A stretch of 64,000 nucleotides of DNA. Source: a virus (lineage: Duplodnaviria > Caudoviricetes). A program made the position numbers and the translations under genes. Position 1 is the first letter of the stretch, and each line of letters starts with the position of its first letter. The stretch covers positions 1 through 64,000 of IMG/VR virus record IMGVR_UViG_2767802109_000003. One strand, given 5' to 3'. The notes beneath the pieces are model-generated. The model worked only from the letters and a program-made list of their open reading frames with translations. It ran no database searches and had not been told where the DNA came from. Shown here in pieces: positions 1 through 63,903 of this stretch.

Positions 1-180
1 TCAGGCCGCCTCGATGACCTCGCCACGGATCGCGGTCGCCCACTCGACCACCAGCAGCTCGTACTCCACACGCTCCTGCGCGGACAGGGTCCCGCCCGCG
101 CGCCGCCACAGCGCACGGATCTGATCGTTCAGCTCCGCGGCGGACCGCACGGAACCAGGCGTCACGTAATCGGGGGACAT
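1..180 (-). CDS. Host small hypothetical protein downstream of uppP
   Basis: ORF MSPDYVTPGSVRSAAELNDQIRALW...EVIEAA, ATG at 180, TGA at 1-3; lies outside the inferred phage junction. Confidence 0.6.
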   Translation of the reverse strand: MSPDYVTPGSVRSAAELNDQIRALWRRAGGTLSAQERVEYELLVVEWATAIRGEVIEAA

Positions 181-243
181 GCGGACAAGCCTAGGGGCAT
201 GCACTGACACTGCGCTACCGCACGGCTACCCAAGCGGTTCGTC

Positions 244-381
244 TCAGCCGGAGGACTCCGCGGCGTGCGGGCTGAGGGCACCCGTCGCGACCAGGGCGAT
301 GATGACGATGCCGAGCGCGATGCGATACCAGACGAACGGCATGAAGCTCTTGGTGGAGATGAACTTCATGAACCAGTGCAT
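244..381 (-). pseudogene. uppP: Displaced 3' end of undecaprenyl-diphosphate phosphatase (UppP/BacA), 45 aa, re-started by an ATG overlapping the integrase stop
   Basis: Translates as MHWFMKFISTKSFMPFVWYRIALGIVIIALVATGALSPHAAESSG*, matching the recognisable Streptomyces BacA C-terminus (…IAWFMKFISTKSFMPFVxYRIALG…SPHAAES); too short for the ORF track. Confidence 0.85.
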
Positions 382-383
382 CA
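350..383. other. Inferred left prophage attachment junction (attL) inside uppP
   Basis: BacA-like coding similarity stops at the W codon (~375), immediately next to the integrase stop (381-383); exact core cannot be defined without the other end. Confidence 0.65.
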
Positions 384-1775
384 GTCGGCATCCTCAGCCG
401 CTGTGACCTGCCGTTTCCACCACTCGGCGAGGCCCTCTGGGAGAGAACTGGGAGAACCTGGCGACTTCTCCCACTCGGTCTCCCGAACGAAGCGCAAAAA
501 CCGCTCCTGCAGTGAATCCATCATCCGCTGCTCCATCGCCGTTGTCACGTTCGCGTACAGGCCCTCCACACCCGCCACCTCATGGCCCATGCGCGTCTCG
601 ACCGCGATCCGCGAGTGCTCGCCGCCCGCCTCGTCGATCCACTCCTTCGCCCCGTGCCGCAGCAGATACAGCCGCTTCCCCGCGTAGGCCGTCGCCGGGA
701 GGGCGGGGACGGGCCGCCGTGACGTGACCGTCTGTCGCTGCCCCAGCCGCATCCGCTCGAACTCCGGTGAAGCGTCACGGCCGTCAGCGATCGGCCGCCA
801 GTAGTGGTAGGTGAAGTTCGCGTTGGCCAGCAGGCCGCCCGCGATCGACCGGAACACGTACTCGCCGTCGTGACTGCCGAGCAGCAGCTCCAGCAGCTCG
901 GCCAGAAACGGCGGCACCACCAGTGTCCGCCGTGACTCGTACTTCGGCGGGAACAGCTTGAGGACGCCCTTCTCCCGCTGGTGCTGCCACTGCACGCGGA
1001 TCGCCGGCATCAGGCCGGGACCGTACCGCTTGAGGTCGTCGGCGTGCCGCTCCTGGCGATCCTCCTCCTTCGGGTCGTCCAGCGGGTCGGAGGCCGGCCA
1101 GGCGGGATGACAGTAGACGCGGCGCAGCGCGTACAGCTCAGCGGGCCGCATGCCGGTGCAGGCCATCGTCCACACGAAGACGAAGCCGTCCAGGCCCCAG
1201 AAGGCGAGGGCGTTGCAGGCGAGCTGGTGGACGTCCTCGATGCGCATCTCGCGCTTCCGCTCGCGCGGCTTCTTCTTGTACCGGCCGCGGCGCTGCTTCT
1301 TCCCCTTGGGGACGGGCGACGTCTTGCGGAGCCCGTCGTCGACCGCGTCGTCCATGAGCATGGAGAAAACGGTGAGGATCTCCTCCCCGTACTTGTCGCC
1401 CACGTTCGGGAGAGCTTTGAGCTGCTTCTTCCACGCCCGATAGATGGACGGCTGGATGTCGGCGACGGCGGTCTCACCCCACCGCGGCACGATGTACAGC
1501 CGCAGCATGGACCGGATGGCCTTGTCCCGCAGGTGCCCGACATCGAGGGTGTCGACCCAAGTCTTGGCGTACTCGCCGACGGTGGTGGCGCCGTCCCGGC
1601 GGGAGATGTAGTCGTCGTTGCGGATCTCGGCTTCCCGGTCAAGGCCGTAGTTCTTGGCCTCGGTCTCGTCGGTGAAGCCGCCCTTCTGGTCATAGATCCA
1701 CTTGCCGCGGTCGTCCTTCTTCCGCGTGTTCCAGACGACTCTGCAGGTGTTCCCGCGCCACTCGGTGTAGGCCAT
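381..1775 (-). CDS. int: Tyrosine recombinase / phage integrase
   Basis: GMRPAELYALR (catalytic R), LRHG, MGH...GLY motifs; N-terminal arm-binding-like region; next to the att junction. Confidence 0.92.
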   Translation of the reverse strand: MAYTEWRGNTCRVVWNTRKKDDRGKWIYDQKGGFTDETEAKNYGLDREAEIRNDDYISRRDGATTVGEYAKTWVDTLDVGHLRDKAIRSMLRLYIVPRWGETAVADIQPSIYRAWKKQLKALPNVGDKYGEEILTVFSMLMDDAVDDGLRKTSPVPKGKKQRRGRYKKKPRERKREMRIEDVHQLACNALAFWGLDGFVFVWTMACTGMRPAELYALRRVYCHPAWPASDPLDDPKEEDRQERHADDLKRYGPGLMPAIRVQWQHQREKGVLKLFPPKYESRRTLVVPPFLAELLELLLGSHDGEYVFRSIAGGLLANANFTYHYWRPIADGRDASPEFERMRLGQRQTVTSRRPVPALPATAYAGKRLYLLRHGAKEWIDEAGGEHSRIAVETRMGHEVAGVEGLYANVTTAMEQRMMDSLQERFLRFVRETEWEKSPGSPSSLPEGLAEWWKRQVTAAEDAD

Positions 1776-35227: not shown

Positions 35228-35818
35228 ATGAACGTCACCCTTCGTCGTATCGCCGTGTCGGGCAGTGCCGCGGTCGCCGTCCTCGGCGGTGCCGCCACCA
35301 TCACCCTGGCCGCCCCCTCGCCGGCTTCCGCCGCCGTCTCCGAGCACGTCGTCGAGCGGGCCGTCACCGCCCCCGTCACGCTGCCCGACGGGCGCACGAT
35401 CCGGATCACCGGCATGGGCGGCTACGGCCACCACGCCACCGACAAGCACATCGCCGTCGTCGCCGGATTCAAGGCCGACACCGAGCCCGGCAGCAGCGAC
35501 GGCATCACCAACGGCCTCACCCCCGACGGCGGCACCGGCGCGCAGCTGACCAACCCGCAGCAGCAGGCCCCGGCCGGCACGCAGCAGCAGTACCAGACCC
35601 AGGCGGGCGGGGGCACGATCGGCGTCACGGTCGCTGTCGGCGTCGGACTGCTGATCGGCGTGATCGTCATGCTCAAGCGGGGCTCAATGAAGTTCGTCCA
35701 GGCCGCCGCGTGCATCGCCCTCGGCGTGTACCTCGCCCCCACGTTCGTCGGCCCGCTCGTCCAGCAGCTCGGCGGATCCGTCGGCGTCGGTCTCGGCAAC
35801 GTCTGGTCCGGCTTCTAG
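35228..35818 (+). CDS. Membrane protein with signal-like N-terminus and C-terminal TM segments (transfer/spread accessory)
   Basis: RRIAVSGSAAVAVLGG..ASA; C-terminal hydrophobic helices. Confidence 0.6.
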   Translation: MNVTLRRIAVSGSAAVAVLGGAATITLAAPSPASAAVSEHVVERAVTAPVTLPDGRTIRITGMGGYGHHATDKHIAVVAGFKADTEPGSSDGITNGLTPDGGTGAQLTNPQQQAPAGTQQQYQTQAGGGTIGVTVAVGVGLLIGVIVMLKRGSMKFVQAAACIALGVYLAPTFVGPLVQQLGGSVGVGLGNVWSGF

Positions 35819-35880
35819 GCCACACCCAACCCGCGGGGCCCCAACCGGGGCCACGCCCCGCCCCAGAAAGGACTGGCCCT

Positions 35881-38076
35881 GTGGCCACCGAGACCGAGCC
35901 CGTCGAGCAGCAGATCCCGCCCATGCCGTCCGAGCCGCCCACCATCCCCCGCAAGGAGCGGATCAAGGCCGCGTTCGCCGTACAGCGCGCCCACGCCTCC
36001 GCCCGCACCAAGGACTGGCTCGCAGGCGGCGACCTCGACCACGTCGACATCATCCAAGCCGCCACCGAGCGGAAGAACCGCAAGCACGCCGAGAAGGTCG
36101 CCAACCAGCAGCGGATCGTCGCCGAAGCCCACGGCCGCCTCCACCACGCCAAGATGCAGGCCGAGAACGGGGAGACGGTCAGCGCCGCCACCCTGTCCAG
36201 CCTCGGAGGGCGCGCCGCCGCCGAAGAAGCCAAGCTGTCCGCGCTGCAGGCCACCATCGTGCTGCCGCCCACCGACCGCGAAATCAACAACGTGCGCAGC
36301 GGCAAGAAGGCCGGGCGCGCTGCGATCCTCGCCGGAGGCGGACTCGCCGCGGCGCCCGTTCTCGGCGCCACCATCGAGCAGGCCGCCACCGGTCAGCCCA
36401 TGCTCCTCGCCGCCCTCGGCACCGCCGCCGGCTACGGCTGGTATCTCGTGTCCCGCCCTTTCGTCGCCGGCCAGCCTGCACCTGCCCCGACCATGGGGGA
36501 GCAGCCGCTGGCCTCCGCGGTGGTCAACCTGGCGAAGGACGGGCTGCAGCCGGGGCAGCGTGAGTTCAACGCCCCGCCCCCGCCCGCTCTCACCGTCGAA
36601 CAGTTGGAGGACGCCCTCCGTGCAATCGGCGAGATCCGTGGCGAGGAGAAGATCCAGATCCTGGCTGTGCCGCAGAGGGAGAAGGACGGCAACACCACCG
36701 TCGTGTTCGACCTGCCGCCGCGGACGACCGTCGCCGAACTGAAGAAGAAGCTGCCCAAGCTCGCCGGGGCTCTCGGCCGGGACGTGTCCATGGTCGACGT
36801 GACCAAGGCCGGCACCGAGGCCCGCGCCTCCCTGTGGCTGACCGACCAGGACGCGTTCGAGAACACCCGGCCGTCGCCGCTCATCAAGGCCCCGACCCAG
36901 CTGGATGCGTGGAAGGACGGGGTGCCGGTCGCCTGGAACAAGCGGGGCGCCACCATCCGTCTCGCGATCAACAACCAGTCCTACGTCATCGCCGGCATGA
37001 CCCGCTCCGGCAAGGGCGTCGGCGCGTCCAACCTGGTCGTCGGCACCAGCTTCGACCCGCGGATCAACCTGCGGATCGTGGCAGGGAAGAACAACGGCGA
37101 GTGGGACCCCTACGCCAAGACGGGCGTCGCCTCCACCTACTTCAAGCCCAACCCCGAACGGCTCCTGGCCTTGCTGCGGGCGCTGCTCGCCGACAAGGAC
37201 CGGCGGGAGCGGGACCTGGGCGTACTGGGGAAGTCCAAGCTGGTCGGCCCGGTCATCGAACAGATCGGCGGCATAGAGCTGCTGGTCATCGACGAACTGG
37301 CCACCTACACCCGCCCCGGGAAGCCCCTGCGGGACGAGATCCTGGAAGCGCTGATCGAGCTGTCCGCCGTTGCGGCGGGCGCCGGAATCCTCATGGTGCT
37401 GATCACTCAGTACCCGGAGGCCGATGTCATCCCGCAGGCCCTCGCCATGAACTGCGGCGCCCGGTGGGCGATGCGCGTCGAGAACGCCACCCAGTCCAAC
37501 GCGATCCTCGGCGGCGGCCAGGCCAGCGCCGGGAGGGACGCGTCCAAGTTCGATCCGCCGCGGCCCGGCTTCGGCTGGCTCGTCAACCCGTTTGCCGGCG
37601 TCACCGACCTTGCCCGCTCTTTCGACCTGGACGAGGACGAGCGCGGCGAGATCACGATGCTACTGGAGAAGGCCGCGAAGATCCGCGAGGGTGCGGGGCG
37701 TCTGGCCGGGCAGTGGGACGACCCCATCGAGAAGCATCTCCTCAACGCCACCGGCCTGTCCTCCACGGCCGGCGGACCTAAGCGGGACGGCGTGCCGGGG
37801 CGGAACGTCCTGCAGTTGACGCCCGAGCAGCGTATGCAGATGGACGCCTGTCGGGGCTGCCTGATCGCCATGAACGACCTTGGCCGTGACGTGGCTCAGT
37901 TGGACGAGATGGCCGAGCTGATCGGTGAGTCGATGACGCCTGACCGGTTGGGTGAACTGCTGCGCGCGGCGGGCGCCGGTTCGACCGTGAAGGTCGTCAT
38001 CGAGGGCCGCGGCCGGGTGAACGGCTACCGCCGGGCGCCCATCGTCGACGCTCTCCAGTTCCTCGAAGGCGCCTAG
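35881..38076 (+). CDS. traB: TraB-like FtsK/SpoIIIE conjugative dsDNA translocase
   Basis: Two TM segments, Walker A AGMTRSGKG, Walker B LLVIDE, LITQYP, WAMRV, C-terminal winged-helix-like domain. Confidence 0.85.
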   Translation: MATETEPVEQQIPPMPSEPPTIPRKERIKAAFAVQRAHASARTKDWLAGGDLDHVDIIQAATERKNRKHAEKVANQQRIVAEAHGRLHHAKMQAENGETVSAATLSSLGGRAAAEEAKLSALQATIVLPPTDREINNVRSGKKAGRAAILAGGGLAAAPVLGATIEQAATGQPMLLAALGTAAGYGWYLVSRPFVAGQPAPAPTMGEQPLASAVVNLAKDGLQPGQREFNAPPPPALTVEQLEDALRAIGEIRGEEKIQILAVPQREKDGNTTVVFDLPPRTTVAELKKKLPKLAGALGRDVSMVDVTKAGTEARASLWLTDQDAFENTRPSPLIKAPTQLDAWKDGVPVAWNKRGATIRLAINNQSYVIAGMTRSGKGVGASNLVVGTSFDPRINLRIVAGKNNGEWDPYAKTGVASTYFKPNPERLLALLRALLADKDRRERDLGVLGKSKLVGPVIEQIGGIELLVIDELATYTRPGKPLRDEILEALIELSAVAAGAGILMVLITQYPEADVIPQALAMNCGARWAMRVENATQSNAILGGGQASAGRDASKFDPPRPGFGWLVNPFAGVTDLARSFDLDEDERGEITMLLEKAAKIREGAGRLAGQWDDPIEKHLLNATGLSSTAGGPKRDGVPGRNVLQLTPEQRMQMDACRGCLIAMNDLGRDVAQLDEMAELIGESMTPDRLGELLRAAGAGSTVKVVIEGRGRVNGYRRAPIVDALQFLEGA

Positions 38077-45208: not shown

Positions 45209-45355
45209 GTGCCCGTCAGGTCCAGGGCGCAATGGCGCTGGATGTTCGCCAACAAGAAGGCGTTCGCCCACCGCTGGGCCCGCTCAAGGAAGCGCCGCTA
45301 CGGCAAGACCACCGGCTACCGCACCCTCCCCGCGCGGAAGCGAGCCCGCCGCTAG
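45209..45355 (+). CDS. 48-aa very basic peptide
   Basis: GGAGG RBS; MPVRSRAQWRWMFANKKAFAHRWARSRKRR..; stop overlaps portal stop (CTAG). Confidence 0.6.
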   Translation: MPVRSRAQWRWMFANKKAFAHRWARSRKRRYGKTTGYRTLPARKRARR

Positions 45356-47058
45356 GCAGCAGCCAGCCCCCGCGAGCCCCCGCCCTCCTCTTCGTCCTCG
45401 GTCTCGTCCTGGCCCTCGTCCGATCCGGCCTCGGTACCGTCACTGTCGGCTTCGTCCTCGTCGTTCGGCTCCTCAGGCTCCTCGCCGCCGCCGGTGTTGA
45501 ACGGGTCGCCGGCCGGGGCCATGGACTGCTTGTCGTCGCGGATGCGCCGCACCTCGGCCATGATGTCGGCGTCGTCCCAGGACGGCTCCCGCATCTTCAC
45601 CTTCATGAACGTGGAGATCGCCCCCGCCGAATCCAGCAGCGACAGAGTCCGTGCGGTCGCTTCCGGATCGGGTTGCACCGCCTGCGGCCACGACGCGGTC
45701 AGCTCAGCCGCAGGATCGACACCCTTCGCGCGGCAGTGCCGCACGTCGACCATCATCATCGTCGTCAGATGGTCGAGCAGCGCCGGCCGCTGGTACAGGA
45801 TCTTCGTGCCGCGGGTCGTCAACGACTCTTCCTTGCGGGCCGTCACCTCGGTCGCCGTCGTCGCGACCGTCCCCTCCTCGCCGAAGCTCTGCGCGGAGTA
45901 GCCGGCGCTCGAGAGGATCTGGCGGCGCAGGGCCTTCGCGGTCCGTTCGTGCTCCTCAACCCGGATCTTGAACTGGATGTCGGTGATGGAATCCTTCGCG
46001 TCGCCGCTGTCCAGCATGTTCAGGGCGACCTGCACCTCCTGCTCCAGGTTGTAGGAGCCGCCCGTGCCCGGCCCGTCGGTGTCGAGCATCGACTGCGGGA
46101 TCAGCAGCCGGGCCTTACCCAGCCGTAGGTCCCTCATCCAGCTCGTCCAGGATTCGTCGAGGGCATCCATGAGCGGCTCCACCCCAGACAGGTCTGACCG
46201 GCCGAGCGGCGCCGTGTTCGGCACCCCGTCCCACACCCGGTTCGGCAACACATTCGGTACATGCGTGATCAGCAGCCGGCCGATGCCCGTCGACTGCCGG
46301 CCCTGACTGTCGGTGCGCGCCACCAGGTACTCGGTGTCCGGATGGTCGGCCAGACTGTCCGCCCGCATCCCGAGTACACCAGGGCCGCCCTCGTACAGGC
46401 CGTACTCGATCGCCCCCGGCGTGTGGAACTCCAGCAGCCGCCACACCTTCGACGTGTCCGCAAGAGGCGCCAGCTCCCGCCACACGATCGCCTCCGCCAG
46501 CTCACCCCACCGCCACGTCGGCACCACCGCCTCAGGGGCGATCACATCCGTCCACGGCCGCGGGCGCAGCGTCGTATCCCACACCACCCGCAAGTAGACG
46601 TTCGACAGGCCCGCCGTCAACTCCGCGGCCTCCCGCAGCTTCGCGTGGCCGCGGTCGTCGAGGTAGCGGCCGATCTGCGCTGTCGTCGTCTTCGCGGTGG
46701 CCTTGTCGGTGGAGTCGGCGTCGACCGTCACCTGCGGCACGTCCGCCCACAACAGGTTCGCCGACAGCTCGGCGATGTCCGCGGCGATCGGCACGTGCAG
46801 CTTGGCGGCCTGCTGGCCGGGCGTGGCGTCCTGCCCCCAGAAGGTACGCAGCTCGTCACCGCCAGCAGCACGCCGCTGGTCCACGTCGAAGAACTGGCGG
46901 GCCACAGCGTTGGAGCGGTAGTTCGTGGGCCCGCCGTACACGGCGGCCAGATGATCTGTGTTGCCGGAGTACCAGGCCCGCCACATGTCCATGTCGGCGT
47001 GCGGGATCTCCAGGGCAGGCGGCGGCCAAGTGGTGTTCCCGGACGGGGGCAGTGGCAT
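45352..47058 (-). CDS. Portal protein (SPP1-type)
   Basis: WRAWYSG, LHVPIAADIAELSANLL, GRSDLSGVEPLMDALDESWTSWMRDLRLGKAR; follows terL. Confidence 0.88.
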   Translation of the reverse strand: MPLPPSGNTTWPPPALEIPHADMDMWRAWYSGNTDHLAAVYGGPTNYRSNAVARQFFDVDQRRAAGGDELRTFWGQDATPGQQAAKLHVPIAADIAELSANLLWADVPQVTVDADSTDKATAKTTTAQIGRYLDDRGHAKLREAAELTAGLSNVYLRVVWDTTLRPRPWTDVIAPEAVVPTWRWGELAEAIVWRELAPLADTSKVWRLLEFHTPGAIEYGLYEGGPGVLGMRADSLADHPDTEYLVARTDSQGRQSTGIGRLLITHVPNVLPNRVWDGVPNTAPLGRSDLSGVEPLMDALDESWTSWMRDLRLGKARLLIPQSMLDTDGPGTGGSYNLEQEVQVALNMLDSGDAKDSITDIQFKIRVEEHERTAKALRRQILSSAGYSAQSFGEEGTVATTATEVTARKEESLTTRGTKILYQRPALLDHLTTMMMVDVRHCRAKGVDPAAELTASWPQAVQPDPEATARTLSLLDSAGAISTFMKVKMREPSWDDADIMAEVRRIRDDKQSMAPAGDPFNTGGGEEPEEPNDEDEADSDGTEAGSDEGQDETEDEEEGGGSRGLAAA

Positions 47059-47070
47059 GACGGTCTCCTT

Positions 47071-48321
47071 CTAGGCTGCGAGGGCGAGCTGGCGCTGCCA
47101 CAGGGGTCTGGTCGTGAAAATGCCGTAGCGGAGGGCGTCGACGCCATGGTCAGCAACCTTCAACGGCTGCTCCTCGCCGCGCAGGGCGGCCTTGTCGTCC
47201 CAGCTGTAGCCGCCGATCTCCTGGATCAGGGCTTCGCAGGACTTGTGGACGAGGAGCTTGTTCGAGGCGAGCAGCGCGGCCACGGTGCGGATGCCGTCCA
47301 TGACGTCGTTCTTCGCCGGGGTCGGGGTGAGCCGGTCCCGCTTCAACTGGGTGACGAAGGAGGCGGCGGAGGGGTCGACGGTCACGAACTGGGGACGAAC
47401 GGCGCCGATGCCCGGGACCTCGGACAGCCACCCCCGGAGCCGCTGCGAGTACTCGGTGTCGGTGAGCTGCTTCTTCGTCTGCCGCGCCTCGTAACGCCAC
47501 TCCGCCGCCGCGTACAGGCGCCGGTCGCGCCCCAAGCCCAGCAGGACTGCATGGAACGGGTTCGACGTGCCGTAGTCCACGCCGAGGCTGATCCACTTGT
47601 GGATGCCGTCCCGAGGCAGCGACGAGACGATATGCCGGTCGCGGTCCCACGAGTCGTAGATCGCACCCTCCGCGGCCACCCACTCGCCCAGGATGAACCG
47701 CCGGTAGAAGAGGCCCTCGTGGGAGGCCTTCATGTCGGCGACGTAGTCCTCGTCGAGGAACGGATTGTCGTCGATCGTGAACGAGAACCTGCTCACCGGC
47801 TTCCTGCCGGCCTGCGACAGCCAGTCCCGCATGAACCAGTGCGCCGGATTGTCCGGGTTGGTGGTGCACAACAGCTGGGCGCCGCGCACCGACATGCGAC
47901 CGTACAGCTGCTCGAAGAAGATTTGCGGGACGAGGGTGACCTCGTCGACGTAGGCGCCGCACACCGTCATACCGCGGATCTTCGGTTCGGACTTGGCGTC
48001 GTTGGCGCCGATGACGTGCACCACCCGGCCCAGAATGATCGCCGTGGGCGCGCCAGGCGTGTAGTGGATCAGGGACGCGATCGGCCCGAACAGGGCCGGA
48101 TCCTGCATGGGCAAGAACAAGTTGCGGTGGATGGTTTGCGACGTCTTCCCGATCATCACTAGCTCGCCTGTCGTCGGCGCATTCGCAATGAAGATCAACC
48201 ACTTGAGCAGAGACGCGATCGTCTTGCCCGACCGGATCGCCCCCTCCCAGCACGAGATTTTGGTCGTCGACTCGGCGACAGACCGGATCTGCTTCCGGGA
48301 CAGGGGCATCGTCTCGAGCAC
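47071..48321 (-). CDS. terL: Terminase large subunit (PBSX-type)
   Basis: EGAIRSGKT Walker A, AYVDE, TTNPD, GVDYG, VDPSA, DHGVDALRY. Confidence 0.93.
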   Translation of the reverse strand: MLETMPLSRKQIRSVAESTTKISCWEGAIRSGKTIASLLKWLIFIANAPTTGELVMIGKTSQTIHRNLFLPMQDPALFGPIASLIHYTPGAPTAIILGRVVHVIGANDAKSEPKIRGMTVCGAYVDEVTLVPQIFFEQLYGRMSVRGAQLLCTTNPDNPAHWFMRDWLSQAGRKPVSRFSFTIDDNPFLDEDYVADMKASHEGLFYRRFILGEWVAAEGAIYDSWDRDRHIVSSLPRDGIHKWISLGVDYGTSNPFHAVLLGLGRDRRLYAAAEWRYEARQTKKQLTDTEYSQRLRGWLSEVPGIGAVRPQFVTVDPSAASFVTQLKRDRLTPTPAKNDVMDGIRTVAALLASNKLLVHKSCEALIQEIGGYSWDDKAALRGEEQPLKVADHGVDALRYGIFTTRPLWQRQLALAA

Positions 48322-50673: not shown

Positions 50674-51525
50674 TTGTCCATCAACAACTTCAAGCCCGAG
50701 GTCTGGAGCGCGCAGCTTCTCGTCGGCCTCCGCGGCGCCCTGGTGTACGCGCAGCCGCAGCTCGTGAACCGCAACTACGAGGGCGAGATCACGACCCGCG
50801 GCCAGTCCGTGCACATCACCACGGTCGGCGATCCGACGATCTTCGACTACGACGCGGGCGACACGATCAACTACGAGGACATCGAGACCGCGGGCACGGA
50901 CCTGATCATCGATCAGGCCAAGGCGTTCGCTTTCAAGATCGACGACGTGGACAAAGCCCAAGCCCTCCTCAACCCCATGTCGGACATGGCGCAGAACGCC
51001 GCCTACGGACTCCGCGACAAGGCCGACGCCTACGTCGCCAGCCTCTACACCGGCGTCGCCGCCGCCAACACGGTCGGCACCACCGGTGCACCGATCAGCC
51101 TCAGCGATCCGAAGGACGCCTACGACAAGGTCCTCGTGCCGCTGCGCACCCGGCTCGACCGGGCCAACGTCCCTACCGAGGGGCGCTACTTCGTTGGCTC
51201 CCCCGAGTTCGAGGGCGCACTCCTCCGCGACGACCGGTTCGTCCGCGTCGATGCCTCCGGAAGCGAGCAGGGCCTCCGCAACGGCATGACGGGTCGCGCC
51301 GCCGGCTTCGACATCCTCAAGTCGAACAACACCCCCAACCCGACCGGCAGTGTCCAGGTCATGCAGGCCGGCTACCCGGGGGCGATCACCTACGCCGAGC
51401 AGATCCTGGAGACCGAGGCGCTGCGCCTCCAGTCCACGATCGCCGACGCCATCCGCGGCCTCCACGTATACGGCGCCAAGTTGCTGCGCCCGACCGGCAT
51501 CGCCGTGGCGTTCGTCCAGCCGTGA
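50674..51525 (+). CDS. Major capsid protein (P22 gp5/HK97 fold)
   Basis: TTG start; FKPEVWSAQLL, NRNYEGEI, IDQAKAFAFKIDDVD, GLHVYGAKLLRP. Confidence 0.9.
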   Translation: MSINNFKPEVWSAQLLVGLRGALVYAQPQLVNRNYEGEITTRGQSVHITTVGDPTIFDYDAGDTINYEDIETAGTDLIIDQAKAFAFKIDDVDKAQALLNPMSDMAQNAAYGLRDKADAYVASLYTGVAAANTVGTTGAPISLSDPKDAYDKVLVPLRTRLDRANVPTEGRYFVGSPEFEGALLRDDRFVRVDASGSEQGLRNGMTGRAAGFDILKSNNTPNPTGSVQVMQAGYPGAITYAEQILETEALRLQSTIADAIRGLHVYGAKLLRPTGIAVAFVQP

Positions 51526-55962: not shown

Positions 55963-58900
55963 ATGGCGGAGCCCAGTGTCGTCGGACGCACCCGGGTATC
56001 GCTGATACCGGACACGACGCGTTTCGGCGCGACCATGCTGGAGGAACTCCCGAAGGCGGCACGGCCGGGTGCCATCAAGGCCGGCGACGTCATCGCCGAC
56101 ACGATCACCCGCAAGGTGCGGAGTGCGGTCGCCAAGCTGAAGCCCGTCGTCAAGGTCGGCCTCGACCTTGACACGGCGGCGACGAAGACGGCGCTGGACA
56201 AGCTGACCGCCCCCCGCAAGATCAAGCTCGGTGTCGACCTCGACACCGGCACGGCGAAGACAAAACTCGACGAGCTCACGAAGGCCCGCACCGTCAAAGT
56301 CACGGCGCAGCTCTCGGACCAGCAGGCAACGGCGACTCTCGACAAGCTCACCAAACCCCGCACCGTGAAAATCACGGCGTCCGTGGACAGCACCGAAGCC
56401 GAGAAGAAGCTCGACACACTGGTCCGGCAGCGGACGGTCGACATCCTCCCGCAAATCCAGAGGGCCGCCTACGACCGGGCAGAACGGGACCTTGCCCGAC
56501 TCTGCCGGGACCGCTACGTCAACATTTACACGCGGGTCAACACCCGCGTCGGTGCACAAGATCTGCAGAACCTGACCCGCAATCGCACAGTGCGGATCGA
56601 CGCAGACGTCGACACGCGGGCCGCAGCGGCGAGCCTGGCGGCCCTGACCGCCCGGCGCAGCGTCACCGTCAACGCGAACGCCGACACCGCCGCCGCAGCA
56701 GCCCGCCTCGCCCTGCTCACACGGGACCGCAGCATCAACGTCCGGGTCCGTACCATCGGCCTCGGCGCACTCACCGCAGGACTCGGCGCCGCCGGAAGCA
56801 GCGGCAGAGCCTTCTCGTCTCTGGGCGCCCGAATCGCTGCGATCGGCGTAGCCGCCATCACGGCCCTGCCCACCATCGCCTCCCTCGGCTCCGCCCTCGC
56901 ACAGCTCGGGCCACTCGCAGCAACCGCAGCCCCAGCGCTCGGTCTCCTCATCGGCGGATTCGCCGCGATCAAGATCGGCACCAAGGGTGTCGGTGACGCC
57001 ATCAAGGCCGCCTTCCAGCCCGTCGCCGCAGAGGGCGCGAAGGCTGCGTCGGCAACCCGGCAAGTCGAGGACGCGCAACGCTCCCTCGCCCGCGCCCAAC
57101 GCGCCGTGTCGGACGCCCAACGGGCCGCAGCCGAACGCGTCCGCCAAGCCGAACTTCAAGTCGCCAACGCAGAACGCGACCTCGCATCGGCACAACGCGA
57201 CGCCCGACAGGCACAGCAGGATCTCACCGCAGCCCGCAGGCAAGCCGCCCGCGACCTGCAGGACATGAACCAGCGGCTCAAAGAAGGCCGCCTGTCCGAG
57301 GCAGAAGCCACCCTCGCCATCCAGCAGGCCGAGGAAGACCTGGCCCGAGTCCGCTCCGACCCGGCCGCAACCCAGTTGCAGATCCAGCAGGCTGACCTCA
57401 CCCGCGAGCGGGCGGTCGCGTCGCTGGAGGCGCAGCGCATCGAAATGCAGCGCCTCCAGCAGGACACCGCCGCCGCCAACAAAGCCGGCGTCGAGGGCTC
57501 GCAGGCTGTCGTCCAGGCCAAGCAGCAGATCGCCGCCGCGGACACGCGGGTAGCTGATGAGCAGCGCACCCTGGCCGAGGCGCAGCGCGATGTGACCCGC
57601 GCCCAGGTGGACGGCCAGCGGCAGGTCGCCGACGCGCAGGAAGCCGTAGCGGACGCGGTACGCCGCCTCGGCGAAGCGCAGGAGACCACGGCCGCGCAGA
57701 CCAGCAAACTGGACGAGGCCCTCGCCCGTCTGTCGCCGAACGCCCGCGCCTTCGTGGGAGCCCTGCAGACGATGGCACCCGCCTGGCGAGGCATGAAACT
57801 CGACGTACAGGACGCCCTGTTCGCCAACCTCGGTAGCCGCCTTCAGACGGTGGGCGGACAGATCCTGCCCACCGTGCGGGCAGGCCTCGTCGGCGCTGCC
57901 GGCGAGCTCAACACGAAGGCGCACAACGCACTCAGTGCTGTGTCCAATCTGCAGCGGGCGGGAACACTCGGTCAGGTCTTCGACGGGCTGCGGCAGAACC
58001 TGGGCACCGTCTCCCGTATCCCCGGCCAGCTTGTCACTGGCTTCGCGCAGCTGTCGGTGGCCGCCCAGCCCGCCTTCGACCGCATGGCGAGCGGCCTGGC
58101 CGGGGCCATGGACCGGGCCATGGCCAAGCTCGGCACCGCCTTCCAGGACGGCCGACTTGAGGAGGCCATCAACACGGCACTCGACGTGGCCGTCAAGTTC
58201 GGCGGCGTCCTCGCCGACCTGGGCGGCATCTTCGCCGGGATCTTCAAGGCCGCGGGCGCGGCGGGCGGCGACTTCTTCGGCGTCATCGGCGCAGCGCTGA
58301 AGGAGATCCGCCGGGTCATCGAGATGCCCGAGGTGCAGGCGGCCCTGACCCAGATCTTCAAGGCCCTCAACGCCGTCGCCGGACTGCTGGCCGGAGCGCT
58401 CGGCGCAGCCTTGCAGGCATTCCTGCCGGTGCTCGCCGCCATGTCCCCGGTCATCCAGCAGCTTGCGGAGAAGCTCGGCCCGGTCGTCGCCCAGATCTTT
58501 CAGCAGCTGGCCACAGCGCTGATGCCGGTCATCGAAGCACTGATGCCGATCATCGCCGATGTGGTCGGCGTCATCGCGGACCTGGCCGTGCAGCTGCTGC
58601 CGCTGCTGCAACCGATCGGCCTGCTGATCGCCGAGATCCTGAAGGCGGTCGCCCCGTTCATCACGATGATCGGCGGGCTGCTGACTACGCTGCTGCCTCC
58701 GCTGGTGCAGGCCATCACCCCCGTGATCATGGCGCTGCTGCCCGCAGTCGCCATGATCGGGCAACTGCTGGCCCAGCTCGCACCACTGTTTCCGCCGATC
58801 CTCCAGGCGCTCCTGCCGCTGCTGCCGCCGCTCACCCAACTGGCCCTGTCGCTCATCACCCTGGCCATGCAGGTCATCACCCCGCTGATGCCACTGATCA

Positions 58901-61776
58901 TCATGCTGGCCGGGCTGTTCACGAAGGTACTCGCCGGGGCGATCGGCTACCTCGTGCCGATCATGAACAAGGTGATCGGCGGCATCACCTGGTTCGTCGA
59001 CATCCTCACCAAGGGCGTCAAGAAAGTCTTCGAAGGCTTCCACTGGCTGTGGGACAAGCTGCTCGGCCACTCGATCATCCCCGACATCGTCAACGGCACC
59101 GTCGGCTGGTTCAAGAAGCTGTGGAACTGGCTGCGGGACCTCGTCACCACCATCAAGAACGGAGTCGTCGCAGGCTTCCGGGGCCTCAAGAACGGGGCCG
59201 TCGAGATCTGGGAGTCGTTCTGGGGCCGGGTGAGGTCCATCGCCTCCGGCGCCTGGAAACTCGTCCGCGACGGATGGGACACGTTCGCAGGCAGCCTGAC
59301 CGGCGCCTTCAAGGACGCCGTCAAGGGACTCGGAAAGGCCTGGCAGGGCCTGCAGAACCTGGTGAAAGCCCCCATCCGGTTCTGGATCGAAACCGTGTTC
59401 AACCGCGGCGTAGTCTCCGTCTGGAACAAGACCGCTGCCAAGATTCCCGGCGTCCCAGACCTGAAGCCAATGGCCCTCCCGAAGGGCTTCGCCCGCGGCG
59501 GCATCCTCCCCGGCTGGTCCACATTCCGCGACGGCGACGACCAACTCGTCCCCATGCGGCGCGGCGAAGGCGTGTACGTCTCCGAAGTCATGGCCGACCC
59601 CTACGAGCGGGCCCGCCTCCATGCCCTCAACGCCGCAGCCATCCGCGGCCAACACCCTGCCGTCGCCCGCGCACAGATGGGCTTCGCCGAGGGCGGCATC
59701 CTCGGCGGCATCAAGAACGTCGGCTCCAGCATCGTCTCCAGCGTCGGCAACGTCCTGGAAAAGGGAGCCGACGCAGCCCGCGGCACCCTCGCCGACCTCG
59801 CAGCAAAGGCGTTCAAGCCCGTCAAGTCCGGTATCACCAAGGCCCTGGGAAAGAACAAGAGCGGCTGGCCGGGCGCGATCGCCGGCGCCCCACTGAACCT
59901 GATCGACAAGGCGATCGACTACATCCGCGGCAAGGACATTCTCGAATCGACCGGCTCATGGATCAAGCCGGTGAACGCCCCCTACGGCACGAAGTTCGGG
60001 CAGCGCGGCTCGATGTGGTCGTCTGGCCGGCACACCGGCCTGGACTTCCCTGCCAAGACGGGCACCAAGGTCGTCGCCGTCGACAACGGCACCGTCCAGA
60101 AGGTGCAGTCGGGCGGCCCCTACGGCAAACACGTCACCGTCTCCCACGGCGGCGGCCTGCAGTCCCTGTACGCACACATGTCAGCGATGGCCGCCAAGGC
60201 CGGTGAGGGCATCAAGCGGGGCGCCCGGATCGGCTCCGTGGGCGCCACAGGCAACGTCACCGGCCCGCACCTTCACCTCGAGGCGCGTGTCAACGGCAAG
60301 TCCGTCGACCCGATGAAATACCTGACCGGTGGAGGCGAGGGCGGGTCCGGCGTGCAGCGCTGGACTGGTGTAGTCCGCCAGGCCCTCGGTGACCTCCGCC
60401 AGTCGGTGTCGCTGGTGTCGACGACGCTGCGCCGCATGAACCAGGAGTCCGGCGGCAACCCGAAGGCCGTCAACCGCTGGGACTCCAACTGGCAGGCCGG
60501 TCACCCGTCGGTCGGCCTGATGCAGGTCATCAAGGGCACGTTCGCCGCCTACGCGGGCAAGTACAAGCGGACCGGCCCGTTCATGTACGGCGTCTCGGTC
60601 GACCCGATGGCCAACATCTACTCCAGCATGCGGTACGCCCTGGCCCGTTACGGCTCTCTGTCGAAGGCGTACAACCGTCCTGGCGGCTACGCCCGCGGCG
60701 GTGTCGTGGGCATCCGGCGGGGCCTGCCCCGCGGCTACGCGTCCGGCGGCATCATCACGGTCGGCGGCAAGAAGATCGACACCGGCCCGACCGCGGCAGC
60801 TGTCGGCGGCGACTTCCTGAAGGCGCTGACGGGCACCGCTGCCGCCATCAACACTGCGATGACCAAGGTCGCGACCGCGATCAAGAACGCGTTCAAGGGC
60901 GTCAAGACGACCCTCGACGACAAGCTGCTCAAGCAGATCGCTTCGACAAACAAGAAGCTCCAGGCCCTCTCGAAGCAGCGCGACGACATCGCCGCGAAGA
61001 TCACGGCGGCGAAGGATCTGGCGAAGACCACCACCGAGGGCGCCAACAGCTTCGCCTCCGTGACCGGCCTGCCCAGCGCAGGCAACGTGTTCAACGCGTC
61101 GGGGATCCTCGCCGGGCTCAACGTCCGCCTGGGCCAGTTGAAGAAGTTCGGCGCCAACATCAAACTCCTGGGGGAGCGGGGCCTGAACAAGACCCTCCTT
61201 CAGCAGATCATCACTGCGGGTCCGGAGCAGGGGGCTGCATACGCGCAGGCCCTCGTCGACGCCACCCCGGCCGAACTCAAGGACATCAACACTGCCCAGT
61301 CGGCAATCTCCAAGGCCGCCACTGGCCTGGGCCAGAACGCTGCGGACGCCATGTACGACGCCGGGGTCGCCTCCGGGAAGGGCTACCTGACAGGCCTCAC
61401 GTCACAGCAGACCCTGATCGAACGACAGATGCAGATCATGGCCCAAGGTCTGCAGGCAAGCATCAAACGCGCCCTGAAGATCAAGTCGCCGTCGCAGGTG
61501 TTCGCCGCCATCGGCCGCTTCACCGGGCAGGGCTTCGCCCAAGGCGTGGCAGCGTCCGTACCCGACGCCGAGGCGGCCACCCTGCGCATGGCGAACGCAG
61601 TCCGAGCCACCGCCTCCGCCACCGCAGCCCGCGTACAGAACAACCAGACCATCCGCAACGGCGGCGACCGCATCCTCAACTACAACGCAGCCGTCCGAGA
61701 AGTCGCCTCACGCAAGAGCGTCAACGACGCCCTAGCCATGGACGAAATGCTGCACCGAACGCTGGTGGTGGGCTGA
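55963..61776 (+). CDS. Tape measure protein with C-terminal M23 peptidase and SLT-like transglycosylase domains
   Basis: 1937 aa; helical/amphipathic repeats; HTGLD..YAH..GPHLH (M23); QESGGNP..GLMQ (SLT). Confidence 0.92.
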   Translation: MAEPSVVGRTRVSLIPDTTRFGATMLEELPKAARPGAIKAGDVIADTITRKVRSAVAKLKPVVKVGLDLDTAATKTALDKLTAPRKIKLGVDLDTGTAKTKLDELTKARTVKVTAQLSDQQATATLDKLTKPRTVKITASVDSTEAEKKLDTLVRQRTVDILPQIQRAAYDRAERDLARLCRDRYVNIYTRVNTRVGAQDLQNLTRNRTVRIDADVDTRAAAASLAALTARRSVTVNANADTAAAAARLALLTRDRSINVRVRTIGLGALTAGLGAAGSSGRAFSSLGARIAAIGVAAITALPTIASLGSALAQLGPLAATAAPALGLLIGGFAAIKIGTKGVGDAIKAAFQPVAAEGAKAASATRQVEDAQRSLARAQRAVSDAQRAAAERVRQAELQVANAERDLASAQRDARQAQQDLTAARRQAARDLQDMNQRLKEGRLSEAEATLAIQQAEEDLARVRSDPAATQLQIQQADLTRERAVASLEAQRIEMQRLQQDTAAANKAGVEGSQAVVQAKQQIAAADTRVADEQRTLAEAQRDVTRAQVDGQRQVADAQEAVADAVRRLGEAQETTAAQTSKLDEALARLSPNARAFVGALQTMAPAWRGMKLDVQDALFANLGSRLQTVGGQILPTVRAGLVGAAGELNTKAHNALSAVSNLQRAGTLGQVFDGLRQNLGTVSRIPGQLVTGFAQLSVAAQPAFDRMASGLAGAMDRAMAKLGTAFQDGRLEEAINTALDVAVKFGGVLADLGGIFAGIFKAAGAAGGDFFGVIGAALKEIRRVIEMPEVQAALTQIFKALNAVAGLLAGALGAALQAFLPVLAAMSPVIQQLAEKLGPVVAQIFQQLATALMPVIEALMPIIADVVGVIADLAVQLLPLLQPIGLLIAEILKAVAPFITMIGGLLTTLLPPLVQAITPVIMALLPAVAMIGQLLAQLAPLFPPILQALLPLLPPLTQLALSLITLAMQVITPLMPLIIMLAGLFTKVLAGAIGYLVPIMNKVIGGITWFVDILTKGVKKVFEGFHWLWDKLLGHSIIPDIVNGTVGWFKKLWNWLRDLVTTIKNGVVAGFRGLKNGAVEIWESFWGRVRSIASGAWKLVRDGWDTFAGSLTGAFKDAVKGLGKAWQGLQNLVKAPIRFWIETVFNRGVVSVWNKTAAKIPGVPDLKPMALPKGFARGGILPGWSTFRDGDDQLVPMRRGEGVYVSEVMADPYERARLHALNAAAIRGQHPAVARAQMGFAEGGILGGIKNVGSSIVSSVGNVLEKGADAARGTLADLAAKAFKPVKSGITKALGKNKSGWPGAIAGAPLNLIDKAIDYIRGKDILESTGSWIKPVNAPYGTKFGQRGSMWSSGRHTGLDFPAKTGTKVVAVDNGTVQKVQSGGPYGKHVTVSHGGGLQSLYAHMSAMAAKAGEGIKRGARIGSVGATGNVTGPHLHLEARVNGKSVDPMKYLTGGGEGGSGVQRWTGVVRQALGDLRQSVSLVSTTLRRMNQESGGNPKAVNRWDSNWQAGHPSVGLMQVIKGTFAAYAGKYKRTGPFMYGVSVDPMANIYSSMRYALARYGSLSKAYNRPGGYARGGVVGIRRGLPRGYASGGIITVGGKKIDTGPTAAAVGGDFLKALTGTAAAINTAMTKVATAIKNAFKGVKTTLDDKLLKQIASTNKKLQALSKQRDDIAAKITAAKDLAKTTTEGANSFASVTGLPSAGNVFNASGILAGLNVRLGQLKKFGANIKLLGERGLNKTLLQQIITAGPEQGAAYAQALVDATPAELKDINTAQSAISKAATGLGQNAADAMYDAGVASGKGYLTGLTSQQTLIERQMQIMAQGLQASIKRALKIKSPSQVFAAIGRFTGQGFAQGVAASVPDAEAATLRMANAVRATASATAARVQNNQTIRNGGDRILNYNAAVREVASRKSVNDALAMDEMLHRTLVVG

Positions 61777-62727: not shown

Positions 62728-63903
62728 ATGGAATCGCAAGCACTCCGGGTGTACGTCCGCAACTCGACGCTGCAGCGGATCGGGCAGGTCGCCGACTACA
62801 CCAACCTGACCGTCATCCCCCGCCACAACGCCGTCGGTGCGATCACCATGGAGATCTCCGCCGACTCGCCGAGCGCCCCACTGCTTGTCGAAGGCAACGG
62901 CCTGATCATCAAAACGCCGACCGGTCACACCGTGATGTCGGGGCCGATCCGAACCCCGGACTGGTCCCGATCCGAATCGGACGCGGGCGGCGGCAAGCTC
63001 ACCGTCGGCGCCGTGTCGGACGACGAGATCCTCGCCCGCTACGCCTGCTGGCCCTCACCGACCGCAGCTATCGGATCCCAGACCGCATCCGTCTACAAAA
63101 TCGACGTGCCAGCGGCGGAAACCGGCATGCGGAACCTCGTCAATTTGAACGCCGGGCCCGGCGCCCTCGCAAGCCGCCGCAACCCGCTGCTCACCCTCGC
63201 CACCAACGGCGTCCACGGGCCGGCCCTCGTGCGCGAGGTCAACCAGTTCGACAACCTCCTCGTGGTCTTGCAGGACATCGCCAACAGCGCCGGCCTCGGC
63301 TTCCGCGTCGTCCAGGTAGGCCCCAGCCTGCAGTTCCAGGTGTTCGAACCCGCCGACCTGTCCGGCACGGCCCGCTTCAGCTTCGGTCTCGGCAACCTCA
63401 CCGACGCCTCCTACAGCACCACCCCGCCTACCTGCACCCGCGCCATCGTCGTCGCAGGAGGCGGCACCTCACCGAGGGTTTGCAAGACCTACGACCGCGC
63501 CGACCCCCTCTTTCCCGGGCTGGTCATCGAGCAGTTCGTCGACCGGACCAGCGTCGACACCGCCTCCGTCGACCTGACCGCGCAGATGGACCAGGCCGGT
63601 GAGGAAGCCCTTGCGAACGGCGCGGGACAGGGCTCTCTGTCCATCAGCCCGATCGATCTGCCAATGCTGCGCTACGGCCGCGACTACAACGTCGGCGACA
63701 CCGTCTCCGCCCAACTCCGGGGCGGCGCCTGGTACACGGACACCGTCCGCGAGGTCACCCTGACCAGCTCCACCAGCGGCTCCACGGTGAAGGCCACCGT
63801 CGGCGGTGACAGCTCCGGCGACAGTGCCGTGGGCCGCATCTACAAGTACATCGCCCAGGTCAAGAAGAACGTGGCCAGGCTCCAGACCAGGAAGGCGGCC
63901 TGA
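62728..63903 (+). CDS. Minor tail/baseplate hub protein (ReqiPepy6 gp37-like)
   Basis: Follows Dit; RYGRDYNVGDTV motif. Confidence 0.78.
   Translation: MESQALRVYVRNSTLQRIGQVADYTNLTVIPRHNAVGAITMEISADSPSAPLLVEGNGLIIKTPTGHTVMSGPIRTPDWSRSESDAGGGKLTVGAVSDDEILARYACWPSPTAAIGSQTASVYKIDVPAAETGMRNLVNLNAGPGALASRRNPLLTLATNGVHGPALVREVNQFDNLLVVLQDIANSAGLGFRVVQVGPSLQFQVFEPADLSGTARFSFGLGNLTDASYSTTPPTCTRAIVVAGGGTSPRVCKTYDRADPLFPGLVIEQFVDRTSVDTASVDLTAQMDQAGEEALANGAGQGSLSISPIDLPMLRYGRDYNVGDTVSAQLRGGAWYTDTVREVTLTSSTSGSTVKATVGGDSSGDSAVGRIYKYIAQVKKNVARLQTRKAA

Follow-up and report, generated by a model that had tools for sequence, protein, structure and literature searches.

The junction between an integrase gene and a 45-codon uppP fragment, found at the left end of the 64 000-nucleotide stretch of Streptomyces DNA analyzed here (the window; G000:C8:51424-115423), very probably marks one edge of an ordinary gene-restoring integration, in which a siphophage-type prophage of ∼85 kb occupies the host gene uppP (bacA) at its 3′ end. 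The evidence, all of it from sequence comparison, comprises both junctions of the element, the intact gene at its far end, the origin of each of the two uppP tails, an attP form on a related viral contig and homology to the integrase IntSt. In the mechanism that we propose, a tyrosine recombinase of the IntSt family would integrate the ∼85 kb phage at TTCATGAA in the 3′ end of host uppP. Immediately after the integrase gene, the attP of the phage would hold the phage's own version of the last ∼45 uppP codons; recombination at the palindrome would fuse the host uppP body to this phage-borne tail at attR, leaving the gene whole, and the original host tail would be stranded behind the integrase at attL as the 45-codon ORF. 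The overlap between the TGA of the integrase and the ATG of the ORF would be a by-product of an integrase family that ends just ahead of, or within, the palindrome.

The left junction

Positions 244..383 are organized as the preliminary description had it, on the evidence of both the sequence and the ORF list: the integrase stop codon overlaps the in-frame ATG of a 45-codon ORF. On the minus strand, the TGA occupies positions 383-381 and the ATG positions 381-379, with one base common to both; the ATG is preceded by a GAGGA at a distance of 9 nt. The features of this junction and of the gene at the opposite end of the element are as follows.

1..210, minus strand: host gene of 69 aa without a Pfam family, directly downstream of uppP in genomes that lack the element
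244..381, minus strand: 45-codon ORF, consisting of two element codons and 43 uppP codons
244..364, minus strand: displaced uppP 3′ end on the attL side, from just past the palindrome to the stop codon, assigned as host-native by tail comparison
289..375, no strand: att repeat of 87 bp, identical in attL and attR, the longest identical run in their alignment
365..372, no strand: palindrome TTCATGAA, published as the site of crossover for integrases of the IntSt type, also present in the attR copy
376..383, minus strand: element-derived junction with the TGA (integrase stop), the overlapping ATG and a His codon, ahead of a conserved Trp codon and outside the attL/attR identity block
381..1775 (stop included), minus strand: IntSt-family tyrosine integrase of 464 aa (PHROG 1 integrase, E = 3.2e-24)
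G000:C8:136797-137672, minus strand: full-length uppP of 291 aa (Pfam BacA positions 2-257, 291.7 bits)

The 45-codon ORF matches the Pfam BacA/UppP profile at positions 232-257 of 257 (E = 8e-6), in agreement with its earlier assignment as the C-terminal end of UppP; the match spans the last 26 profile positions and misses the cut-off solely on account of the short length of the piece. Alignment shows that the uppP match is not due to chance: window 254..375 and the 3′ end of the full-length uppP in this genome share 89% identity (E = 3.7e-40), and across positions 289..375 the two are fully identical. The ATG and the His codon (376..381) both lie outside the block of identity between attL and attR and are for this reason assigned to element DNA. 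Promoter and terminator scans around both junctions gave no signal above the shuffled background.

Intact uppP and the att repeat

Three loci were found when the BacA profile was run against the entire genome: the fragment, a paralogue at an unlinked position on contig 2 (277 bits) and the full-length uppP, which has the same orientation as the remnant and is situated ∼85 kb to its right. The 291-residue product aligns with the E. coli UppP structure 5OON over residues 6-272, and both catalytic motifs are present. Among the outcomes raised in the preliminary description, it is the rebuilding of uppP by attR that we find: inspected beyond 64 kb, attR carries a full replacement C-terminus, an outcome which that description had set against its own proposal, and the full-length gene at the far end of the prophage ends in a phage-borne tail.

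To the right of the 87 bp repeat, the integrase end follows in attL and the body of uppP in attR. To its left, both copies run as uppP tails to the stop codon with diverged DNA, differing at five of 43 residues. The duplicate of the bacA 3′ end therefore corresponds here to window 244..375, 132 bp to the stop codon, of which 87 bp are identical and the remainder is the diverged tail; in a second genome, G251, attL and attR are identical over 133 bp, ending exactly at the stop codon. The copies of TTCATGAA at window 365..372 and in attR lie at the integrase-proximal edge of the identity block. A further copy at window 45602..45609 lies within the portal gene; its flanking 30 nt have more than eight mismatches to the att site, and it is most likely to be a chance occurrence.

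Origin of the two uppP tails

Empty sites are found in related genomes. The left flank of the window (1..243) is directly contiguous with a complete uppP in seven of them, and window 1-375 is contiguous with full uppP in G017, G009, G007, G006 and G012. Over its final 54 nt, the attL remnant shares 89% identity with the attL remnants of G209, L075 and L076 and 80–83% with the empty-site uppP tails of the closest relatives, G013 and G001, against only 63% with the attR tail of the same genome. For the attR tail, identity is 91% to its counterpart in G209, a genome with an integrase 95% identical to that of the window, and 80% to the attP tail of L078.

L078, a metagenomic viral contig, encodes an integrase with 92% identity to that of the window. 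Behind its integrase gene come the overlapping ATG and the uppP tail and then the right arm of the phage; the DNA directly past the uppP tail has 74.7% identity over 1468 bp to the right arm of the window prophage. These tail identities, the empty sites and the attP form of L078 show that the phage carries a replacement 3′ end, and from the same comparisons the attL remnant is assigned to the host and the attR tail to the phage. The arrangement characteristic of gene-restoring integration, with the 3′ end of the gene on attP and a whole gene in the lysogen, is present. By analogy with the PAISt experiments described below, the crossover would lie within the palindrome, so that the remnant downstream of the palindrome would be essentially all host DNA and the contribution of the element would be confined to Met-His-Trp and part of the palindrome.

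Gene content and extent of the prophage

The element carries the following phage genes and accessory genes; positions beyond the window are numbered as its continuation.

35710..38076: FtsK/SpoIIIE-like (TraB-type) ATPase (phrog_1358, E = 3.9e-28)
45352..47058, minus strand: portal protein (phrog_533, E = 3.8e-100)
47071..48321, minus strand: large terminase (phrog_2, E = 2.2e-43)
50674..51525, plus strand: major head protein (phrog_267, E = 1.7e-69)
55963..61776, plus strand: tape-measure protein (phrog_4197, E = 7.8e-179)
62728..63903: Sipho_Gp37 tail protein (E = 1.5e-62)
76338..77480 (window-continued; L049:761-1903), plus strand: second tyrosine recombinase (Phage_integrase, E = 2.4e-16, with an N-terminal SAM-like domain)
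79810..80712 (window-continued; L049:4233-5135), plus strand: Ku homologue (E = 2.7e-42)

Beyond the window, there are also a β-helix tail protein and a weak amidase match below the Pfam cut-off, which may be a lysin. Because genes for portal, terminase, head and tape-measure proteins lie between the att copies, the element is identified, from its predicted products, as a siphophage-type (tailed-phage) prophage. A tblastn search with the integrase against 50,697 deposited phage genomes gave no match, so that the phage assignment is based on the IMG/VR contigs and on the structural genes between the two att copies; the uppP tail, compared with the deposited phage genomes, matched only two gut-phage records, which are unrelated. 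The second recombinase and the Ku homologue lie between the lysis region and attR and could be either a phage accessory module or a nested element. A TraB-type ATPase is found inside the prophage, and PAISt, the other known user of the same att site, is conjugative.

It is unlikely, if still worth some weight, that the 85 kb interval is not one phage but a phage together with a second element (the recombinase/Ku region at ∼76–81 kb, window-continued) within a common outer att pair. A second gene of the Phage_integrase family and a Ku gene near the right end would fit such a composite, as would the TraB/FtsK module, and PAISt is itself modular (PMC4057263). A third att copy, however, was sought in the 87.7 kb examined and in the whole genome, and only two copies were found. 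Moreover, related IMG/VR prophage predictions span 62–94 kb, att-to-att distances elsewhere are similar, and the right arm of L078 is homologous to that of the window prophage right up to the att site. A single ∼85 kb prophage is the reading that we carry forward.

The integrase and its relatives

The PAISt island of S. turgidiscabies Car8 inserts through IntSt, a tyrosine recombinase, and its integration site within the bacA 3′ end is the 8 bp palindrome TTCATGAA (Huguet-Tapia, Bignell & Loria, 2014; PMC4057263). PAISt is flanked by a 138–141 bp duplicate of the bacA 3′ end, and intSt is its last gene, with the palindrome just downstream; IntSt is not recognized by Pfam, and residues R209, R375 and Y407 are required for its activity (PMC4057263). 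The published intSt primers intF, intX, i and k match L021 (genome G043) exactly, and L021 also has the wild-type sequence at the site of the Y407F mutagenesis primer. The window integrase is 69% identical to the L021 integrase over residues 1-460. Its catalytic motifs TGMRPAE (R210), LLRHGAK (R373) and GLYANV (Y407) correspond to the mutagenesis-primer sites of PMC4057263, and Pfam returns for it a weak Arm-DNA-binding match. On these similarities we classify it as a bacA-targeting integrase of the IntSt type, with predicted recombination activity; comparative support for recombination is provided by the empty sites, the attP form and the attL/attR pairs.

The window element and PAISt share their target, TTCATGAA in the bacA/uppP 3′ end. 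Both have the integrase as their final gene, with the palindrome following its stop codon after a few bases, and both are flanked by a bacA 3′ duplicate of ∼135–141 bp; the homologous integrases have the same R/R/Y motifs and are both missed by the Pfam Phage_integrase model. They differ in that the carrier here is a tailed-phage prophage of ∼85 kb, without an internal att copy, whereas PAISt is a conjugative pathogenicity island of 674 kb. Furthermore, IntSt ends in TAG with no ATG ahead of the core Met, in contrast to the TGA with its overlapping ATG in the window lineage.

The family was surveyed in 300 other Streptomyces genomes and in IMG/VR contigs. A uppP tail (or its start, at a contig end) lies behind every near-full-length integrase homologue of at least 58% identity, and also behind the integrase remnants in G004 and G213; an integrase fragment in G136, cut by the contig end, was left out of this tally. 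None of the homologues of 51% identity or less has a uppP tail. The uppP-targeting integrases are monophyletic (support 100/98; 26 rows). In ten other Streptomyces genomes, a uppP remnant stands behind a related integrase or what is left of one, and each of these genomes possesses a full-length uppP. The distance from the remnant to the intact gene, on the same strand, is 62–88 kb in G209, G251, G168 and G015. It is 234–477 kb in three genomes (L060/L055 in G047, L070/L066 in G159 and L073/L063 in G213), a spacing that fits very large PAISt-type islands or later rearrangement. The palindrome of G213 has the degenerate form TGTATGAA, which has been reported for the fixed island of S. scabies (PMC4057263).

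The start codon behind the integrase

The preliminary description presented the ATG as a start codon supplied by the phage. This is literally true, the ATG being element DNA; as a selected feature, the start codon is unsupported, the ATG being absent in IntSt and in several other lineages. Junctions tabulated from the 300 Streptomyces genomes and from IMG/VR were placed on the integrase tree, giving the following distribution.

Window lineage: TGA-TGC or TGA-TGT after the integrase, with an ATG overlapping the stop
G150, L090 and G251/L086: tandem stop TGA-TGA, which also creates an ATG
L083 and L085: the base preceding the stop makes ATGA
G047, G159 and G015: TTG or GTG only, a codon of the kind that three of the four bases ahead of any TGA would give
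IntSt lineage (L021, L082, L087), G168 and L084: TTG two codons ahead of the core Met
G004: no start codon at the junction

Conservation of the start codon and the coupling signal across the homologous elements was tested with a negative outcome. L085 and L086 have near-identical integrases and differ by a 3 nt unit at the junction, and the ATG flips between them. L076, which belongs to the window's own subclade, is without the first stop, and the GAGGA upstream of the ATG is already altered in G209. From this distribution the ATG is interpreted as a labile by-product of stop-codon turnover and not as a conserved signal, which leaves selection on it unsupported.

The frame relation between the integrase and the uppP tail is constant in every member of the clade, because the palindrome TTCATGAA, read TTC-ATG-AA in the uppP frame and T-TCA-TGA-A in the integrase frame, holds both an in-frame UppP Met codon and a TGA in the integrase frame. 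In the IMG/VR contigs L076, L088, L089 and L095, the integrase ORF extends into the att site, where the palindrome TGA terminates it; the stop in the window comes earlier, 5 nt ahead of the Trp codon. In these four contigs the crossover site thus lies inside the integrase coding sequence and overlaps the UppP Met codon as ATGA.

It is very doubtful that translational coupling to the integrase yields a product from the 45-aa ORF and that this peptide, the last UppP transmembrane helix, has a role, either in modulating UppP or in serving the phage. The overlap of TGA and ATG with a GAGGA upstream is what coupling would call for, an ATG overlaps or abuts the stop in the window clade, G150/L090, G251/L086, L083 and L085, and the same ORF is present in the attP form of L078. 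Against this, the ATG is missing (replaced by TTG or GTG, or by nothing) in the characterized IntSt lineage (L021) and in G168, G047, G159, G015 and G004; where present, it is explained by TGA-TGA or TGA-TGC, and it is gained or lost between near-identical integrases; L076, moreover, is without the first stop. The GAGGA is not kept even in G209, and with the gene intact at attR there is nothing to complement. The constant frame relation can be counted on the side of coupling, and it would also be compatible with ribosomes that finish the integrase and re-initiate at the ATG or at the palindrome Met, but it is equally explained in full by the palindrome TGA. We accordingly regard as highly improbable a peptide of ∼45 aa made by such re-initiation and acting on UppP or the undecaprenyl-phosphate cycle in lysogeny or induction. 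No observation marks the remnant as a functional piece of UppP, and under gene-restoring integration its peptide would be without a role.

An inverted repeat at the edge of homology, ATGAAC-TG-GTTCAT, was considered as an arm site of the integrase and rejected: it is perfect in G150/L090, matches at five of six positions in the window and is absent in the other lineages.

Integrity of uppP in the lysogen

The preliminary description had also put forward a split enzyme, with the N-terminal part complemented in trans by the fragment, and excision as an on/off switch for uppP (active lysogeny); a prophage that disrupts uppP in either way is next to impossible, for the stranded 3′ fragment beside the integrase, as in gene-disrupting prophages, is the only point in its favor, and it is set against full-length uppP at attR here and in 10/10 other junction genomes and a second uppP paralogue on contig 2. 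Both proposals fail because they need a broken gene in the lysogen, where the gene is whole. Interruption of the target during integration, the feature of active lysogeny and split genes, is absent in this genome and in the ten others with a junction.

Excision switches of this kind are reportedly operated by phi10403S in comK, skin in sigK and SPbeta in spsM. The prophage described here resembles them in lying within a protein-coding gene and differs from them in that their target is broken in the lysogen and restored only by excision, whereas uppP is intact in both states. The closer parallel is in arrangement. Gene-restoring integration is reported for coliphage 21 and e14 in icd and for many phages in tRNA genes (Campbell, 1992; Hill et al., 1989; Williams, 2002). 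As with phage 21 and e14, attP carries a diverged 3′ end of the gene, the functional gene is fused to the phage end and the host remnant is left beside the integrase; the host, the gene and the integrase family are different, and the likeness is one of arrangement. Since the lysogen keeps a whole uppP, neither a split enzyme nor a gene switch nor a bacitracin phenotype is expected.

Implications and genomic context

The site and the integrase family have already been published for PAISt; the only novelties here are the carrier, a tailed phage, and the fairly frequent occurrence of such phages. In the searchable literature, no report on prophages at uppP/bacA in Streptomyces was found beyond the PAISt papers. 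An integrase–uppP junction occurs in about 3% of the 300 sampled Streptomyces genomes, a figure that counts junctions and includes elements whose size and content were checked for only some. IntSt-type modules occur outside PAISt as well, in tailed prophages of 62–94 kb and in metagenomic phage contigs. This suggests a connection between phages and the integration module of a plant-pathogenicity island, and it implies that phages and the PAISt island compete for a single attB. About ten natural variants of attP and integrase are now available for a tyrosine integrase that Pfam does not recognize, which aids annotation and could help to define the att site. For the question of a split enzyme or a gene switch, the element matters little.

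The insertion also alters the surroundings of the 69-aa host gene. This gene begins 33 bp past the uppP stop codon, an order that is kept in relatives. In the lysogen, the 85 kb prophage lies between the gene and the uppP promoter, placing the gene downstream of the integrase and the uppP remnant, and a polar effect of the prophage on it is possible.
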